From a bacterium (lineage in GTDB: Bacteria; SZUA-182; DTGQ01), in contig JBFMGO010000027.1 of the NCBI GenBank assembly GCA_040752695.1, positions 40,907 through 56,630 of the forward strand: a stretch of DNA of 15,724 nt, given 5' to 3'. The notes below the pieces were generated by a model that was not told the origin of the DNA, ran no database searches, and saw only the letters and a program-made list of their open reading frames with translations. Made by a program: the position numbers and the translations under genes. Below, in pieces: positions 3,396 through 15,349 of this stretch. Position 1 is the first letter of the stretch. Every line of letters starts with the position of its first letter.

Positions 3396-3947
3396 ATGCA
3401 GTGGCTTAACTATGTGAAAGCGAATATAAGATGGGGAAAGAGAGAGAAACTGATCTTGAAGTGCGTCCTTTTCAGCGTTCCCTTATTCCTGCTTATTCAG
3501 TTTTACTTATTGCCTGCTATCGCAAACGTTAAGGGTATTGCAGAATCTATCCCGAAAAGAAAACAAGACCTGAAAGAGCTGCGGAAATTACGGAACGAGT
3601 TTCTGGATTTCCGTGAAAAAACGGCATGGGTAAACAAAACGCTCCAGGCAAGAGGTCCGGATTTTGAATTTCTCACCTTTATGGAGGAATTGGCCAAGAA
3701 ATGTAAGATCGAGAGTAAGATCATCTCCATGCGGCCAGTAAACCACCCTTCTTTGCTGCCAAATGAAAAGATCGTAGAGATAAACATAGACGGCCTGATA
3801 ACCGACGAGTTGACAAGGTATCTTTATGAAATCGAAAATTCGTCAAAGCTCCTCTTCATAAAAAAAACAACCATCCGTTCAAACTTTGGCCCTAAAAAAA
3901 CACTGGATGTCTCTCTTCAGGTTTCAACCTTAACCGATAAAATTTAA
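3396..3947 (+). CDS. gspM: Type II secretion GspM / PilO-like inner-membrane protein
   Basis: REKxIL motif before a single TM helix, then a coiled coil and a ferredoxin-like C-domain pattern (LTRYLYEIENS..LLFIKK..LDVSLQVST); 183 aa. Confidence 0.65.
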   Translation: MQWLNYVKANIRWGKREKLILKCVLFSVPLFLLIQFYLLPAIANVKGIAESIPKRKQDLKELRKLRNEFLDFREKTAWVNKTLQARGPDFEFLTFMEELAKKCKIESKIISMRPVNHPSLLPNEKIVEINIDGLITDELTRYLYEIENSSKLLFIKKTTIRSNFGPKKTLDVSLQVSTLTDKI

Positions 3948-7482: not shown

Positions 7483-7531
7483 AGGCAATTTTTGTTTACA
7501 TAATCTAAAATTATGTAAACAAAAATTGCCT
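7483..7531. repeat. Perfect 22-bp inverted repeat with a 5-nt loop
   Basis: aggcaatttttgtttacataat-ctaaa-attatgtaaacaaaaattgcct. Confidence 0.9.
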
Positions 7532-8935
7532 CGTATAAAGAAGCTTTCCCAAAGTAAGGAGAAGAAACCAGCGAGAAATTTTCGCCGAGCTCTCCTGGTG
7601 GGGCATCTTTATCCTGGACGTCTTTCACCTGTCCTCAATGTTTCTTCCCACCCCTTTTTTTGAGCCGGCAGCCACAAAAGTCCTCCACATCCCAGCCATT
7701 TTCCGGAAAAGGAATTGGTAATGATATAAAAGTAATAGCGATAGTATATTTATATCCTCAAGATTTAAAAATCGATCGATTAATTTTTTATATCATCATG
7801 ATGTATAAAAAATTACATATTTTCATCATCAAGATATATATAATGGGTACTCTGTCATTTGTTATAGCCTGCTCTTTTACTGAGATGAATTGGGATTGCT
7901 GATGGTCTGAGAGAGGGGGAGGGCGCGAGAGCGGCCCTCGTTTCTGGTCTATTTAATCTGCAAGCCGTTCATATTCTCTGCCATTCCGTTGCCAATCCAG
8001 TTGTTAATTCATTGACTTCATTATTATTATTTGTCAAAATCCGGTGATGGGAATTATTTGCTGCTCGATCTACCTTTTATGGAGAGGGCCAGGAAGAGCC
8101 TGTTTGATTTTCAGACGAACGATGTTCTATAATTACCCTTATATAGCTAATTATCTGAAGTAATAAGTAGTTAAATAGCAGATGTAAATCACTATAGAAA
8201 ATTAATAATTATAAAGGTTTAATTTTCTGATCTTTTTACCTTGAGATCACTTGGCAGCCAATTTAGAAACAGCAAATAAACAAGTTAGTCCTATTAAGCT
8301 CAGACGGAGGTTAACCGGTATCTTATTAATAATCAAAAAAACAGAGAGATAATCTTCTTAGTACAGGCCGTGTTAATACTACAGCGAGACGGGAACATTA
8401 CCAGTTTGTTACGGAGGGGGCTGGCTTAGACACTGCGCATTAAATACGCGACCAGATAGTGTGTAATAATCCTTCGCTCAGAATGATATTTAAAGTAGGC
8501 AAGGGTGAAGGTAACAAGGAGCGTAATGGATAAGGGGAGGATATCGTCTAATCTTATTAAGTTGAAGGCCCATGCCTTTTTATCGGGTTTGTGCCTTTTG
8601 TTCACCATAGCAGGCAGGACTTTTGTTTCCTGGGGCAAAGGGGGTGAAGGAAGTATTATAGATTTTTTTATCTTTACTCATGTAATTCTGTTTAGATCAG
8701 TGAGAATGGAGGTTAAAAGCTAGGGGAAATTACTGGTCTTACACCACTGCTTACCTGGGTTAAGCAGGGTCAAGGAATCCAGTTGTGCAACCTATTGGCT
8801 TATGGAGCAAAGCTGGCAGGTGAATGCACAAAGTTGATCCAAAGTTGATCTGGATATTTCGCTCTCTGCTGAAGGAGAGACGCAACTTGGGTTAAAGAAC
8901 TGATTGTGAATCTGTATGGTTAGAGAGGAGTAGTT

Positions 8936-9808
8936 ATGAAAAAGAAAAATAGTGTGTTATTATTTGTGTTTTTTTTCGTTATGAGTTCCTTCCTGGTTAC
9001 TGGAACTGCTCACGCCCAAACCTCAACAACAACTAATCCTTTATTAAGTCCCTTTCTCTTTTCAGGGGGAGGATTAGGGCACTTGAGCCCGTATTTACTC
9101 TATGGCCTTTTAGGCAATTCCACCGGTACACAAACTACCAGTAATTTTGGCTTTCCATACCCCTATATGGGTATGGGCGGCATGATGGGCATGGGTGGGT
9201 TAAATCCCTATCTCTACAGCGCATTATTGGGCAATCTGGGTACTACCGGCACGACCCCGACGACCACGGGGAGCCTGGGTTATCCCTATTCTCTCATGGG
9301 CGGCATGATGGGCATGGGTGGCTATGGCCGGCTGAATCCGTATTTATATAGTGGCTTGCTGGGCAATCTTGGTACTACCGGCACAACCGGCACGACCCCG
9401 ACGACCACGGGGAGCCTGGGTTATCCCTATTCTCTCATGGGCGGCATGATGGGCATGGGTGGCTATGGCCGATTGAATCCGTATCTGTATGGCGGACTGC
9501 TTGGAGGCTTGTTTGGCAGCACCACCACTACTCCCACCAGCGGCACATTTTCACCCTTTGGATATGGATATGGATATGGCGGCATGATGGGCGGCATGAT
9601 GGGTATGGGCGGCATGATGGGCGGATTATTTCCTTACCTTTACAGCGGCTTACTGAACCCCCTTACTTCAACAACAACTGTTGCTCCGGCAACGACTGCT
9701 CCTGTCGCGCCAATCGTTACTCCTGTGCCCCCAACAGTTGCTGCTCCGGCGGCAACCATTGTACCGGCGACCACGGTAGTACCTGTAGCTACAGCACTTG
9801 CATTATAA
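8936..9808 (+). CDS. Secreted low-complexity Gly/Met/Tyr/Thr/Pro-rich repeat protein of unknown function
   Basis: GAGGAG SD; Sec signal peptide MKKKN...TAHA|Q; repeats of LxPYLYxGLLG, T-rich spacer and MGGMMGMGG with synonymous divergence between copies; terminator downstream. Confidence 0.9.
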   Translation: MKKKNSVLLFVFFFVMSSFLVTGTAHAQTSTTTNPLLSPFLFSGGGLGHLSPYLLYGLLGNSTGTQTTSNFGFPYPYMGMGGMMGMGGLNPYLYSALLGNLGTTGTTPTTTGSLGYPYSLMGGMMGMGGYGRLNPYLYSGLLGNLGTTGTTGTTPTTTGSLGYPYSLMGGMMGMGGYGRLNPYLYGGLLGGLFGSTTTTPTSGTFSPFGYGYGYGGMMGGMMGMGGMMGGLFPYLYSGLLNPLTSTTTVAPATTAPVAPIVTPVPPTVAAPAATIVPATTVVPVATALAL

Positions 9809-9878: not shown

Positions 9879-9930
9879 CTCTCACTTCTCTCCTTGAACA
9901 GGAGAGAAGTGAGAGCCTGTTTTTGCTTTT
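9879..9930 (+). terminator. Probable intrinsic terminator
   Basis: 16-bp perfect stem ctctcacttctctcct-tgaac-aggagagaagtgagag followed by cctgtttttgctttt, 70 nt after the stop codon. Confidence 0.75.
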
Positions 9931-10498: not shown

Positions 10499-10622
10499 CC
10501 TCATTCATGGAAATACAGCTTCGTTCGTGGGAATATAGCTTCGTTCATGGAAAGATAGCTTCGTTCGTGGGAATATAGCTTCGTCTTATTTTTGAGCTTT
10601 GCCTCATTCGTAAGGTACAGCT
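10499..10622. repeat. 20-bp tandem repeat x4 (ABAB pattern) plus two degenerate copies
   Basis: tcattcatggaaatacagct / tcgttcgtgggaatatagct / tcgttcatggaaagatagct / tcgttcgtgggaatatagct; degenerate tcgtcttatttttgagct and tcattcgtaaggtacagct. Confidence 0.9.
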
Positions 10623-10785: not shown

Positions 10786-13530
10786 ATGAAAGGAGAGATG
10801 ATGGAGAGTAAAAGAGAGAGAATTACGAAAAGTCTTGTTGTTTTTCTATTTTTTAGCTTATTATTGGCAGGGACATTGCCGGGTTCTTATGCTCAAACCC
10901 CTGTCCTTTATGCTGCCGGTGGAGAGGTTACTGTTTCCCTATCGCCGGTTATCACAACAACAGATCCCGCTCTATATCCTCCCCAGGAAGAGGTGCCGGT
11001 ATCTCAGATTATCACGGTTACCTTTAGTCAGGATATGGACGTGGAAACAACCCGTTCCGCTTTTGCCTTATATCAGCTTTCTGAAGGTGCCGTTCTGCAG
11101 GTTGAAGGAGTTTGCAGCGTTGAAGGTAAAGTTCTTACCTTTGCGCCTTCGACTCCCCTGGAAGTGGGTTCCATCTATCAGGTCACCCTGAACCAGAGCG
11201 CTACGGATATAAATGGCCAGAACCTGCAAAATGGCTCTTTGGAGGGAGGCGATATCCGATGGTATTTCGTCACGGCAGCCGACACTCTCTCTCCGGAAAT
11301 TACTGATTGCTCGCCAGCTTCGGAAGGTGTGGATGTTTCTCCGGGTACTTCCATCACATTTCACGTTCGGGACAATAATGCAGGTGTTAACCCGGATTCT
11401 GTTGTTTTGACAATTAATGGTGAGCAGGTGATCCCTTCCCTTTCCCCGATGTCAAAGACAGACCTTCAGGTTACCTATCTCCCTGCAACTCCCTTCAGTG
11501 ATGGAGAAGTGGTTACCGTCTCCATCCAGGCCAGGGATTTTGTGGATAATGCAGTAGAGTATTCCTACTCGTTCACCATCGCCCGCAGGATGGATCAATT
11601 CTGGAGCCGGGTGATGGGGTTTGACCTTACAACCATCATCGCCATGGCTGTTGACAGTCAGGATCATCTCTGGACGGTTATGCAGCAAGGACCCGATCAA
11701 GAGCCAGATTGCAGCGGTGGAATCGTAATGTTCGACGGCAGCTACATTCGTTTTCCTCTTGATACCTTGAGTGAGCTTTGCAGCATTAAAGCCACAGCCA
11801 TAGCTGTTGACAGTCAGGATAATGTATGGATTGGCCTGGCCGCAGGCAGTGAGCCGGAAGCTGATCCTAATACCATTCCAAAGCTGGCCAAATTCGATGG
11901 AGATACCTGGACCCTTTACAGCGCCACGGCCCTCGATGTTCCCCCTGAGGAAGAAATCAATGAGATGGCTGTTGACTCTCAGGATCATGTCTGGATGGCT
12001 ACCGCTCAAAGCGGGGTCGTTGAGTTCTATGATGGTTCGAGCCATCACCGGGGACTTGAAGATAATACCCTGGTCAGGGCTGTCACCATTGACGGCAATG
12101 GCGACGTCTGGGCCGGGACGGTACCGTTTGGCGTCATGAAATTGCACGATTCGGTATGGGAGCAGTATTTTTACTCTATCCGTGCCAAAGATCCGATTGA
12201 TTTCACGGTTAATGATCTGGCTGTTGATGACAATGGCAAGGTATGGGTAGCGACGAATGCGGGACTCCTGCAACTGGTTCCGGATGCCGGTACCGGCGAT
12301 CCTCAATGGGTGCACTTTATCCCGGGTGAATTTGTCAATACTGTGGCTGTAGACAGACGTTCAGGCTCTTTGTGGGTTGGAACGAAAGATGGACTTCTCA
12401 GGTTCGATGGTGAGTCGAACTGGGTGAATTATTCCACAGAGGAGTCATACTATCCTCTCTCGACCGAGAGCATCACTCACATTGCCGTAAATCCCAATAC
12501 AAAGCACTACGAAATCTGGGTTGCCAGCAGTACATCTTTGGCCAGGAGAGATGAAAACTGCCCCCGGGTTGCCTCTACCTCACCGCTGGACGGAGCCACG
12601 GATGTATCGAAAAATGCTCCGGTTAAGATAACTTTTTCAGAAACTGTAGAGGCTCTTGATCAGCAGAACCCCACCGGATTTTTCAGTCTGTATGACTCTC
12701 AAAACGTGCCTGTTTCGGGAAACGCCGTCTTTGCTGCTAAAAATATCCTGACCTTTACCCCCTCATCACCTCTGAAAGAGATGGAAACCTATACCATAAA
12801 GGTTACCCCGCAAATCCAGGATCTGACCGGCAACGCGTTCGATGTTGACGGAGATGGCCTGGGTGCAGAAGGAGATGATGTATTCTTTGCCAGCTTCAGG
12901 GTGGAGAATGAGAAAGTGCCACCTCAAATTGTATCCACATCACCACAGAACGGTGTTAAGAACGTATCAAAGAATACGACGGTTAAAATAACCTTCAATG
13001 AGGGTATGGACCATGATTCTGCCGCTTCTTTTGGTTTGTATGATCCAAATCTTGTGGCTGTTTCAGGGAACACCGTCATTGATGGAAATGTTTTGACCTT
13101 TACTCCCTCATCTCCTTTGGAAGAAGGTAAAACCTACACGCTCGAAGCCGGCCGTGAAATGAAGGATCTTGCAGGTAACAGGCTCGATGGAGACAAAGAC
13201 GGCGTGGGAGGAGAAGAAGAGGATACATTCTCCGCCAGCTTCACAGTGCAGGAACAGACAGTACAGCCGTCATATAATGGTGGATGGATGTGGCCGTATA
13301 CGGGTGGATGGAGTGGCATAGGGTGGCTCCCGGGTACCTACACCGGTTTTTATGGCGGTGGCGTAACCGGCCCATTTATGCCGTATAGTTATATGCTGCA
13401 ATGGCCCTGGTATCCTTTTAGCCAAAGCAGCTTCAATATATTCCCTCAAACTCAGCTTATCGGCCTCCAGGGAATGAACAACACGTATCTCCGGAATTCA
13501 TTATTAGCGTTTGGATGGACCTTGTATTAA
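10786..13530 (+). CDS. Secreted multidomain protein: Ig-like (Big_5/SbsA-type) x2, beta-propeller, Ig-like x2, aromatic low-complexity tail
   Basis: Signal peptide ...LPGSYA|QT. Big_5 patterns (TSPxDGAxxVS, ITFSE, LTFTPSSPL, DLxGN) at about 10945-11274, 12559-12903 and 12919-13251, with a related Ig-like domain at about 11281-11583. Repeated [IM]AVDxxxxxWxxT blades (Reg_prop-like) at about 11590-12546. The start could also be 10798 or 10801. Confidence 0.88.
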   Translation: MKGEMMESKRERITKSLVVFLFFSLLLAGTLPGSYAQTPVLYAAGGEVTVSLSPVITTTDPALYPPQEEVPVSQIITVTFSQDMDVETTRSAFALYQLSEGAVLQVEGVCSVEGKVLTFAPSTPLEVGSIYQVTLNQSATDINGQNLQNGSLEGGDIRWYFVTAADTLSPEITDCSPASEGVDVSPGTSITFHVRDNNAGVNPDSVVLTINGEQVIPSLSPMSKTDLQVTYLPATPFSDGEVVTVSIQARDFVDNAVEYSYSFTIARRMDQFWSRVMGFDLTTIIAMAVDSQDHLWTVMQQGPDQEPDCSGGIVMFDGSYIRFPLDTLSELCSIKATAIAVDSQDNVWIGLAAGSEPEADPNTIPKLAKFDGDTWTLYSATALDVPPEEEINEMAVDSQDHVWMATAQSGVVEFYDGSSHHRGLEDNTLVRAVTIDGNGDVWAGTVPFGVMKLHDSVWEQYFYSIRAKDPIDFTVNDLAVDDNGKVWVATNAGLLQLVPDAGTGDPQWVHFIPGEFVNTVAVDRRSGSLWVGTKDGLLRFDGESNWVNYSTEESYYPLSTESITHIAVNPNTKHYEIWVASSTSLARRDENCPRVASTSPLDGATDVSKNAPVKITFSETVEALDQQNPTGFFSLYDSQNVPVSGNAVFAAKNILTFTPSSPLKEMETYTIKVTPQIQDLTGNAFDVDGDGLGAEGDDVFFASFRVENEKVPPQIVSTSPQNGVKNVSKNTTVKITFNEGMDHDSAASFGLYDPNLVAVSGNTVIDGNVLTFTPSSPLEEGKTYTLEAGREMKDLAGNRLDGDKDGVGGEEEDTFSASFTVQEQTVQPSYNGGWMWPYTGGWSGIGWLPGTYTGFYGGGVTGPFMPYSYMLQWPWYPFSQSSFNIFPQTQLIGLQGMNNTYLRNSLLAFGWTLY

Positions 13531-13724: not shown

Positions 13725-15221
13725 TTAATAAGGCAGTGGGTGGGCAAGATTGAATGTTCCCTCATCCAGTAATTGGCCCAGGCTGTCTTTCAGGCTGTAT
13801 TTCCCGTCTACCAGGAATTGGCCTGCCCAGATGCACCAGACGCCTGGCGGACACAGGCTATTGCTGGCTGTGCCGGTAAAATCGGCAGTGTAATTTCCGT
13901 TGTTAAATCCGGCCTGAAAGGAGATAGGGCTTGAGCCTCCGGTCGGTGTATAGTGAAAGTTCATCAAATATCCCTGTCCCAGATCATACGGAGAGTCAGC
14001 CATCTCAACGGTTTGATTTTCCCGGTCAATAGTTAGTTTCCCTCCGCTGGCCGGGTTGTTCTGGCTTTGCCACGCTCCTTCCATTTTAATGGGTGCAGGA
14101 GCTGCCTTCACAATGGGGTCTAGACAGGAGGGCATAGTCAGATAACTTTTGAAGATGCACAGGGCATCTGCAGGAGTAACAGAGCCGTCCTGGTTTACAT
14201 CAGCACAATCTGAACAGGAACCGAGTTTCAGGTAGCATCGAAAGGCAATCAAAGCATCTTCCGGGGTTAATTTTCCATCTGCGTTAAGATCACCCTCCTG
14301 GCAGTGAGCGATACAGATGCACCCCGGGCTTGAGGAAAAAGAGGCCAGGCTGCCTCGGAGATTCTCCAATTGCAGGGTGTAACATCGGCTCTCCTGTACT
14401 GTCTGCTCCGCCTCTGCCGGTTTACATTCCCCTCTGAAATAGGCCCATTCTTCGCATTCACTCCCATTACTGAAAATACAGACCCCGTATTGATTCCCCT
14501 CTGCGTCTTTTCTTATTTCCAGCCTGCCTCCCTGGTTTATGCAATAAACAGAGGCAGGATTAGCGATGCCAACCCCCTGCTGCTCAAGACTTTCCCGGGC
14601 ATTCTCCGTGTTTCCCTGTGTATTCTCGGTGCCTTGCGGCACATTCCCAGGGCTTTGCGGCATATCCTCCTCTTCCCCCCGCATCTGGCTGTCCTCCTCT
14701 TTTGCCTTAAAGTTCAACCAAACCAGGTATCCGCTCGCTCCTTTGGGAATGGTACGATCGGATGAGACACCAGCTATACTAACCCTGCCGGGAGCAATCG
14801 GCGTAACCTCAGGCGAAGCGGAGGGACCGGCCAGATCACCCGGATCAAAGCCCAAAAACTCCAACGCCTGTTCCGGATAAGTGACATCAAAGCCGAAGGT
14901 ATCGACTTGACAGGGTGCATGCTGAATCCTCACCGCAACCCGAACATTTTCACCTGTTCTCGCCCTGACTCCTTCGATATCCAATGCTCCTGAATCACTC
15001 TCAAGGCATTGGGAAGCAGGGAGATAGGAGCTTTTTCCATCGATAGTACCAGGGACATTGGTGAATAGAGGGCTCTCCTTCACGTATACCGCCCCCTCGA
15101 ATACGGCTTTGGCTCCAGCCAGAGGGACATGAAAGGCAAGTGATGCCACTAGGACGGCCAAAATGCAACTTCCGAGGACTGATCCTCCCGATACCTTTAA
15201 TCTTGCTTTGTCTTGTTTCAT
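13725..15221 (-). CDS. Secreted cohesin-, DUF333- and dockerin-domain protein
   Basis: Signal peptide (...VPLAGA|KA); cohesin-like GENVRVAVRI...FGFDVTYP...L...GDL...GYLVWLNFKA; DUF333 signature IANPASVYC..QGG...GVC..C EEWAYFRGEC; dockerin duplicated Ca-loops GDLNADGKLTPEDA / ADVNQDGSVTPADA; unassigned beta-rich C-domain. Confidence 0.87.
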   Translation of the reverse strand: MKQDKARLKVSGGSVLGSCILAVLVASLAFHVPLAGAKAVFEGAVYVKESPLFTNVPGTIDGKSSYLPASQCLESDSGALDIEGVRARTGENVRVAVRIQHAPCQVDTFGFDVTYPEQALEFLGFDPGDLAGPSASPEVTPIAPGRVSIAGVSSDRTIPKGASGYLVWLNFKAKEEDSQMRGEEEDMPQSPGNVPQGTENTQGNTENARESLEQQGVGIANPASVYCINQGGRLEIRKDAEGNQYGVCIFSNGSECEEWAYFRGECKPAEAEQTVQESRCYTLQLENLRGSLASFSSSPGCICIAHCQEGDLNADGKLTPEDALIAFRCYLKLGSCSDCADVNQDGSVTPADALCIFKSYLTMPSCLDPIVKAAPAPIKMEGAWQSQNNPASGGKLTIDRENQTVEMADSPYDLGQGYLMNFHYTPTGGSSPISFQAGFNNGNYTADFTGTASNSLCPPGVWCIWAGQFLVDGKYSLKDSLGQLLDEGTFNLAHPLPY

Positions 15222-15259: not shown

Positions 15260-15349
15260 GTTAACCTAGTTATCCAAGTTAATCAGGTTAACCAGGTTGT
15301 CCAAATTAACCAGGTTATCCAAGTTAAACAAGTTACCCAGGTTATCCAG
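15260..15349. repeat. 9-bp tandem repeat x10 (consensus GTTAWCCAR)
   Basis: gttaaccta gttatccaa gttaatcag gttaaccag gttgtccaa attaaccag gttatccaa gttaaacaa gttacccag gttatccag. Confidence 0.92.

Follow-up and report, generated by a model that had tools for sequence, protein, structure and literature searches.

The P0001 gene and its product

Within the window, that is, the whole 15 724-nt stretch of DNA analysed here, positions 8936–9808 of the forward strand encode a real, conserved protein, P0001. The gene has the following features.

8936..9808, forward strand: gene for P0001, an exported Gly/Met/Tyr/Thr repeat protein of 290 aa (ORF call, purifying selection)
8924..8930, forward strand: ribosome-binding site AGAGGAG (sequence; 19 nt identical in genome G002)
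8936..9016, forward strand: predicted Sec signal peptide, with KKK, a hydrophobic core and AHA followed by Q (sequence features; the A–Q site is found in 13 of 13 members)
9017..9661, forward strand: repeat region of LxP[YF]L[YFL] cores, GGMMGMGG blocks and Thr/Gly spacers (pattern counts; core profile)
9044, 9083, 9200, 9332, 9473, 9626, forward strand: starts of the six LxP[YF]L[YFL] cores (pattern count)
9176, 9299, 9440, 9590, forward strand: starts of the four GGMMGMGG blocks (pattern count)
9239..9504, forward strand: recent internal duplication (9239–9363 and 9380–9504; copies 91% identical)
9662..9805, forward strand: Val/Ala/Thr tail punctuated by Pro (sequence reading)
9879..9924, forward strand: intrinsic-terminator-like hairpin (16 bp) with a T-rich tail (sequence)

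Two observations lead us to regard this ORF as a real protein-coding gene. The 42-codon internal repeats differ in 10 codons, with nine of the 10 differences being synonymous; between orthologs, dN/dS was 0.15–0.18 in five of six pairs, the remaining pair being saturated. The hairpin downstream of the gene is perfect over its 16 bp and, with the T-rich tail, lies at 9879–9915.

Past residue 27 the 263 residues of P0001 comprise G57, T42, L35, P25, Y21, M20, S17, A13, N9, V9, F8, Q2, R2, I2 and H1. An earlier note on this DNA had named two Arg and one His as the only charged residues of the mature chain; the composition count agrees, with D, E, K, C and W at zero. Its numbers of LxP[YF]L[YFL] (six) and GGMMGMGG (four) copies were also reproduced. 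The third block it described, the Thr-rich TTGTTPTTT, is present, but in this exact form only twice. Five of the six cores are followed by xLLG or LLN. Of the ORFs called in the source genome (G000), 3205 have 200 aa or more; in this set P0001 ranks 8th lowest in its fraction of D/E/K/R and 3rd highest in its fraction of Met. These data support the description of its composition as low-complexity and similar to that of structural proteins.

The AlphaFold2 model of P0001 has a pLDDT of 45 and a pTM of 0.17, with the signal helix as the sole ordered part. As the alignment behind it comprised 12 sequences, the model's low confidence argues only weakly for disorder; the monomer is predicted to be disordered, without a stable fold. 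The N-terminal Gln of the mature chain may be cyclised, and a glutaminyl cyclase gene is present in G000.

Members of the family and their distribution

Eleven of 13 genomes from a single uncultured order each carry the family at one locus, and both well-sampled families of the order are represented; none of seven other genomes of the same small phylum carries it. The family was not found in two genomes of the order, G005 (91% complete) and G007 (98%), although both have the GLYG proteins described below. The alignment of the family holds 12 members, while composition counts refer to 13 full-length members, ranging from 107 aa in P0005 to about 310 aa.

An HMM search against 1.84 billion representatives returned 13 matches. 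On reading, nine of them were members or fragments, P0012 was a degenerate relative, and P0008, P0013 and P0014 were spurious. P0012 is a secreted protein of 254 aa in which degenerate core repeats are fused to an acidic, Cys-containing domain. A DNA-pattern scan of metagenomes gave nine matches, three to true members and six by chance; the lone viral match to the DNA pattern was also attributed to chance. A scan of contigs with P0001 confirmed nothing.

Pfam had no match to P0001 and, for the 12 members, gave only two weak matches, each in a single member. There was no NCBIfam match for any of the 12 members, no match in PDB and no Rfam match in the window. ESM Atlas gave no feature matches, and its structure matches were disregarded since the source model had a pLDDT of 0.42. 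In databases the members are named 'hypothetical protein', and a literature search, at the level of result lists and with most subscription papers outside its coverage, returned no description of the family. It is an undescribed family restricted to one order; a secreted low-complexity structural protein is, as such, of a known kind.

Conserved and variable parts of the chain

A signal peptide ending at an Ala–Gln site is present in all 13 full-length members, as judged by sequence features (a basic n-region, a hydrophobic h-region and AxA), in agreement with the claim that the protein is secreted. The proposed exclusion of D, E, K, C and W holds in the genus of P0001 and fails as a signature of the family: Lys is absent from the mature chain in 13 of 13 members, but Asp occurs in nine, Trp in six, Glu in one and Cys in one.

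The repeat unit consists of a Thr/Ser/Gly spacer, then (Y/F)P(Y/F)xMGGM, then G(R/H)(F/L/M)NPYLY(S/G)GL, and is present in two to six copies. In a profile of 67 core units, Asn precedes Pro in 43, Tyr follows it in 43 and Leu stands at +7 in 54; the units were matched by a regular expression, so that Pro is fixed by the pattern and some YPYSL blocks were caught as well. Across the 12 aligned members, the aromatic fraction is 0.11–0.23, the Met fraction 0.05–0.20 and 2P+G 0.33–0.41. The V/A/T tail is long only in the genus of P0001 and in two metagenome members, and short elsewhere.

A conserved core in variable copy number resembles a multi-core precursor, and one may ask whether P0001 is the polyprotein precursor of a series of RiPP-like or signalling peptides. 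The chain would then be cleaved at the repeats or edited at XYG sites by splicease-like radical SAM enzymes. We consider this very improbable. Dibasic sites are absent, and R precedes the core in only 24 of 67 units; XYG is not kept, because after the core Tyr, Ser (35 units) is more frequent than Gly (14 units). A modifying enzyme or protease was not seen as a conserved neighbour of the relatives' loci, and the Sec signal would carry the chain out of reach of radical SAM enzymes in the cytoplasm.

The earlier note had also proposed that Met clusters bind Cu or Ag. Met clusters do bind Cu(I), and P0001, with 20 Met in MGGMMGM clusters and its high rank in Met content, could be imagined as a soluble sponge in the periplasm that takes up Cu(I)/Ag(I) or oxidants and whose synthesis is turned on by an envelope-stress sigma factor. 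The last block of P0002, GCGCMMGGCGC, has Cys in place of Met, and the predicted ECF-type promoter (see below) would be consistent with stress induction. However, conservation is seen in the NPYLY core, which is free of Met, and not in the number or spacing of Met (7–29 per chain; 8 Met in 185 aa in the G003 member). The loci of 10 relatives, where ORF starts were read by eye, showed no copper gene alongside, and a hydrophobic, uncharged chain would be unlikely to remain soluble. The data do not support Cu/Ag binding as proposed, and we judge the sponge quite improbable.

Neighbourhood of the gene

Neighbours of the family gene differ among the loci of 10 relatives, with names read by eye from ORF starts: lpx/gfo, V-ATPase, an NtrC-like regulator, bshB-pilB, HAD and uvrC. 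As the neighbours vary, the family gene stands alone. A downstream hairpin was present in all 10 ortholog loci (counted without a shuffle control).

Several other elements of the window were recorded. The ORF at 3396–3947 (183 aa, no Pfam match), which we take to be GspM-like, lies within a PHP-TPR-fabZ-lpxA-lpxI-gfo cluster and is kept in relatives. At 10786–13530 of the forward strand there is a gene for a 914-aa secreted protein, which contains Big_5 domains and a Reg_prop propeller and ends in a Tyr/Trp/Gly/Pro tail poor in charge. The same gene order, with this gene after that of the family, is found in G001, G002 and L147. Tails of this kind terminate several large secreted proteins of G000 and may tether these proteins to a Gly/Tyr matrix. 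An intergenic tandem repeat (20 nt, four times; 10504–10584) precedes the 914-aa gene. On the reverse strand, positions 13725–15221 encode a 498-aa secreted protein with matches to Cohesin, DUF333 and Dockerin; the gene is preceded by another intergenic tandem repeat (9 nt, 10 times; 15260–15348).

Upstream region and promoter-like motif

Two features upstream of the gene were characterized by comparison of leaders.

8522..8550, forward strand: predicted ECF-type promoter, CGTAAT (8522–8527), 17 nt, CGTCTA (8545–8550); conserved in leaders
8637..8647, forward strand: stand-alone strong Shine-Dalgarno-like box; AGGGGGTGA in five of five family-f1 leaders

The motif CGTAA[TC], 16–17 nt, CG[TC]C was found upstream of all 10 orthologs for which upstream DNA was available; the motif was defined after viewing these 10 leaders, and the source genomes are kin. 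It is placed 203–774 nt before the ATG, about 414 nt in the case of P0001. Its chance expectation is 0.5–2.7% per leader. The leaders do not align between families, yet the motif is kept. Three held-out metagenome members were available; the two with upstream DNA both carry the motif, and the third has no upstream DNA.

The motif in 10 of 10 leaders, together with the hairpin in 10 of 10 loci, supports the suggestion that the gene is monocistronic and independently regulated. The long leader that had been proposed does not fill the 1.63-kb gap upstream: the motif lies about 414 nt before the ATG, and the gap also contains a remnant of a genome-wide repeat. This remnant (window 8425–8476) is a truncated copy of an intergenic repeat, which we take to be REP-like, found at about 15 other sites in G000 and usually running into the palindrome GTCATTCCCGCG. 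At 7483–7531, after gfo, there is a perfect 22-bp inverted repeat, part of which matches the G001 and G002 leaders; it is possibly an operator or a terminator.

Does the motif mark other genes? In G000 with P0001 left out, five of 14 upstream matches precede Gly/Tyr low-complexity genes, versus 97 of 2662 (p = 1e-4), while two control patterns had two of 16 and 0 of 19 matches before such genes. Of the 11 other strict sites in relatives, four stand before genes for exported Gly/Tyr proteins, and two of these four are apparently orthologous. Matches to a position weight matrix (PWM) of the motif were enriched before genes for predicted secreted proteins (15 of 24 at score 14, P0001 included). 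The motif is not commoner genome-wide than controls (14 matches in G000 versus 16 and 19), and in the 13 genomes the strict motif had 16 matches versus 33 for the reversed pattern. Before GLYG genes it was seen in 0 of 29 cases at PWM score 16 and in one of 29 at score 14.

The motif has the shape of ECF sigma promoters. The sigmaE promoter of Streptomyces is given as AAC-16/17-CGTC (S. coelicolor; PMC6767563, in the part available to us), and the accessible part of the supplement of PMC7826278 lists the −35 element GTAAC and the −10 element CGTCTA (ECF105, ECF116). The motif shares with these promoters its bipartite form, CGTAAY and CGTCT, and a spacer of 16–17 nt; the C. crescentus SigF promoter, GTAACC-CGTA, is a further ECF promoter of comparable form. 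The exact CGTAA pair of the family motif does not, however, occur in that part of the supplement. A cognate sigma factor was not found, the motif being upstream of none of the five ECF genes examined. We characterize the promoter of the P0001 gene as a predicted ECF-type, stress-type promoter, with a probable small regulon. What is new here is this ECF-type promoter-like motif, CGTAAY-N16/17-CGYC, before the family and several other genes for exported Gly/Tyr proteins, as read from sequence.

Two secreted proteins of G000 with two CxxCH sites each also have the motif upstream: one of the DHOR family (C64:17089) and one with a marginal match to CCP_MauG (C3:42313), whose G002 ortholog retains the motif. 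Peroxidase is described as cross-linking Tyr in suckerin and resilin in the available text of PMC11931252 and PMC13052691. One could speculate that P0001 forms a covalent matrix, hardened after export by dityrosine bonds from co-regulated secreted di-haem peroxidase-like enzymes. Yet each of the two enzymes occurs in only two of the 13 genomes of the order, versus 11 of 13 for the P0001 family, and peroxidases were rejected as family-wide partners. Within the DNA examined, the motif was not seen at the G000 paralog on C2 or at the G003 DHOR gene. The CCP_MauG score was 25.9 bits against a cut-off of 25.6, and searching the genome with this family gave no match. We regard a covalent matrix of this kind as improbable.

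The Shine-Dalgarno-like box lies about 290 nt before the P0001 start, and AGGGGGTGA is also present in one of two held-out members. The box resembles the STAB-SD stabilisers described in the accessible text of PMC12970973 and is a possible mRNA stabiliser. As a mark of Gly/Tyr genes it was rejected (0 of 102 genome-wide). Control of the GGA-rich leader by CsrA was also rejected, as csrA was not found in G000.

Some observations on leaders and motif sites stand by themselves. About 75 nt upstream of the family gene, leaders L112, L114 and L117 (G009, G006 and G012) have an ORF of three codons, Met-Glu-Pro-stop, behind a strong Shine-Dalgarno sequence; at the corresponding site the G010 and G011 leaders have ATG and an immediate stop. 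The promoter-like motif of the family also lies at G000:C15:36542-36569 (reverse strand; also L119 and L122), where it runs antisense into a lipoprotein gene with HEMAH and is kept in G000, G001 and G002. In G000 the gene for this lipoprotein, presumably M48 peptidase-like, comes directly after a GLYG gene. Small secreted Pro/Leu/Trp-rich proteins (LPPYNTLWPLWS; G000:C124:11776, C1:106751 and C63:21817) form a second family, whose genes have a variant of the motif upstream, CGTAAG, CGTAGT or CGCAAA.

Other Gly/Tyr-rich exported proteins

In G000, 97 ORFs passed a filter for a charge-poor Gly/aromatic window, with ordinary membrane proteins included at the end of the list. Several dozen at the head of the list are Gly/Tyr repeat proteins with a signal peptide; many of them contain YGGL units, and some have a C-terminal domain. 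The pattern YGGLYGG was found in 13 of 13 genomes of the order and in none of seven others, and the reversed control was zero everywhere.

These GLYG/YGGL proteins are similar to P0001 in their order-restricted range, signal peptide and charge-poor Gly/aromatic repeats; they also share its type of Pro/Val/Ala/Thr tail, and some have the motif upstream. The tail of the GLYG paralog G000:C45:22910-23935 is similar to that of P0001 by eye, the BLASTP comparison being not significant. In contrast to the dozens of GLYG/YGGL genes per genome, P0001 has one locus, its three-block repeat is 30–47 aa long versus a 4-aa unit, and it is without the C-terminal barrel-like domain.

The statement that such a composition is unlike that of bacterial exports is not supported as it stands: sulfur-globule proteins are a bacterial precedent (PMC10386293, as far as its available text goes), and G000 itself encodes dozens of similar proteins.

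As to export and modification, G000 has seven secretins, while its CsgG matches are only partial (model positions 9–98 of 210) and lie in multidomain frames. Five PMT_2 matches were over the cut-off in G000; as this family is broad, they are not evidence of O-glycosylation.

A proposed self-assembling coat or matrix

Taken with moderate confidence, our preferred explanation is that P0001, built of aromatic stickers and Gly/Met spacers, likely forms a coat or matrix by self-assembly; it would be analogous to abductin, suckerin and sulfur-globule proteins and a member of none of these groups. The Sec signal would export a charge-poor repeat chain, disordered as a monomer. In the exported chain, multivalent stickers would be provided by the Tyr/Phe/Met-rich blocks and flexible spacers by the Gly/Thr/Ser runs. 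Since there is almost no charge that could hold it in solution, the chain would be expected to condense and to mature into beta-rich fibrils or a film. The product would be a water-insoluble coat or matrix, built together with the many other exported Gly/Tyr-rich proteins of the lineage. The gene would be transcribed alone from an alternative (ECF-type) sigma promoter, and promoters of the same type would drive a subset of the other exported Gly/Tyr proteins, making up an inducible envelope or matrix programme.

The features that are kept, namely aromatic blocks, near-zero charge, a copy number free to vary and export, are those that a multivalent sticker-spacer polymer would need; an enzyme, a metal site of fixed stoichiometry or a processed precursor would be expected to need different features. 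Conservation of one locus with a particular core sequence would also be consistent with a role in binding or signalling.

Protein matrices known from bacteria include curli-type amyloids, S-layers and the envelopes of sulfur globules. That a whole order exports uncharged Gly/aromatic block polymers, and that this one is retained under purifying selection as one locus in two families, points to an envelope or matrix material that has gone unrecognised. The repeat core is a short, cheap peptide for assembly tests, and the promoter motif offers a first handle on which secreted low-complexity proteins of the lineage act together. If P0001 is simply soluble or unexpressed, it would be one more uncharacterised low-complexity export.

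Comparison with known systems

The comparisons below draw on those parts of the cited articles that were available to us. Curli proteins CsgA/CsgB (PMC9999432) are, like P0001, secreted repeat proteins, and P0001 could similarly form a functional amyloid. Unlike them, it is not Gln/Asn-rich, has no match to the Curlin Pfam family and has no csg genes nearby.

The sulfur globule proteins SgpA/B/C share more with the family: they are bacterial, Sec-exported and very hydrophobic, have been likened to keratins and plant wall proteins, and are present in one to six copies (PMC10386293). The logic of a signal followed by a hydrophobic repeat is common to Sgp and P0001. By this analogy P0001 could be the envelope protein of a periplasmic inclusion. 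Against it, P0001 is about twice the size of Sgp proteins and has long tandem repeats, and the SGP profile (PF17228) matched none of 12 members at E 0.1; the corresponding genome search had matches in none of 13 genomes, its controls being equally without match. The search of the host, in incomplete genomes, covered rDsr and SoxB, and neither was over the cut-off: dsrA had no match above it in G000 and soxB none in 13 of 13 genomes. An inclusion envelope is a distinctly improbable role for P0001.

Abductin, the elastomer of the scallop hinge, has the consensus GGFGGMGGGX (PMC9999432, PMC13052691). Abductin and the family are both secreted, are composed of Gly/Met/aromatic blocks and are predicted to be random coil. 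GGFGGMGG, the first eight residues of the consensus, is present in three copies in the G004 ortholog, the only one of 12 members to have it; P0001 has no copy, while GMGG occurs in 10 of 12 aligned members. Gly makes up 17–27% of the repeat region in the family versus 58% in abductin, and Pro 5–9% versus 1%. The family differs from abductin in having no Lys for sulfilimine links and in its added Thr/Ser spacers and NPYLY core. We take the likeness to be probably convergent rather than a sign of homology. With a 2P+G of 0.33–0.41, the family is under the threshold of at least 0.60 given for elastin-like elastomers (PMC7061623), so that a stiff or amyloid-like state is likelier than a pure rubber.

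With suckerins (P[M1]P[M2]; PMC11931252) the family shares a block architecture, G/L/Y-rich modules and Pro-flanked Ala/Thr/Val stretches; the Pro-flanked A/T/V tail of P0001 resembles their P[M1]P blocks. In contrast to suckerins, the A/T/V block is single, C-terminal and long only in some members, and the family is Met-rich. The GGLY module is absent from 12 of 12 aligned members, and there is no His-rich H1 block (one His in P0001). Non-covalent assembly as in suckerins is plausible.

A bolder reading, which we consider unlikely, would join these likenesses: the order may build a composite in the animal style, from a single-copy, abductin-like Met/Gly/Tyr block polymer and dozens of suckerin-like GLYG proteins, with a dedicated alternative sigma factor switching on part of the set and co-regulated di-haem peroxidases tanning it by dityrosine in some species. 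If true, this would be an extracellular bacterial coat of a new class, and one that offers a new source of block-copolymer materials encoded by genes.
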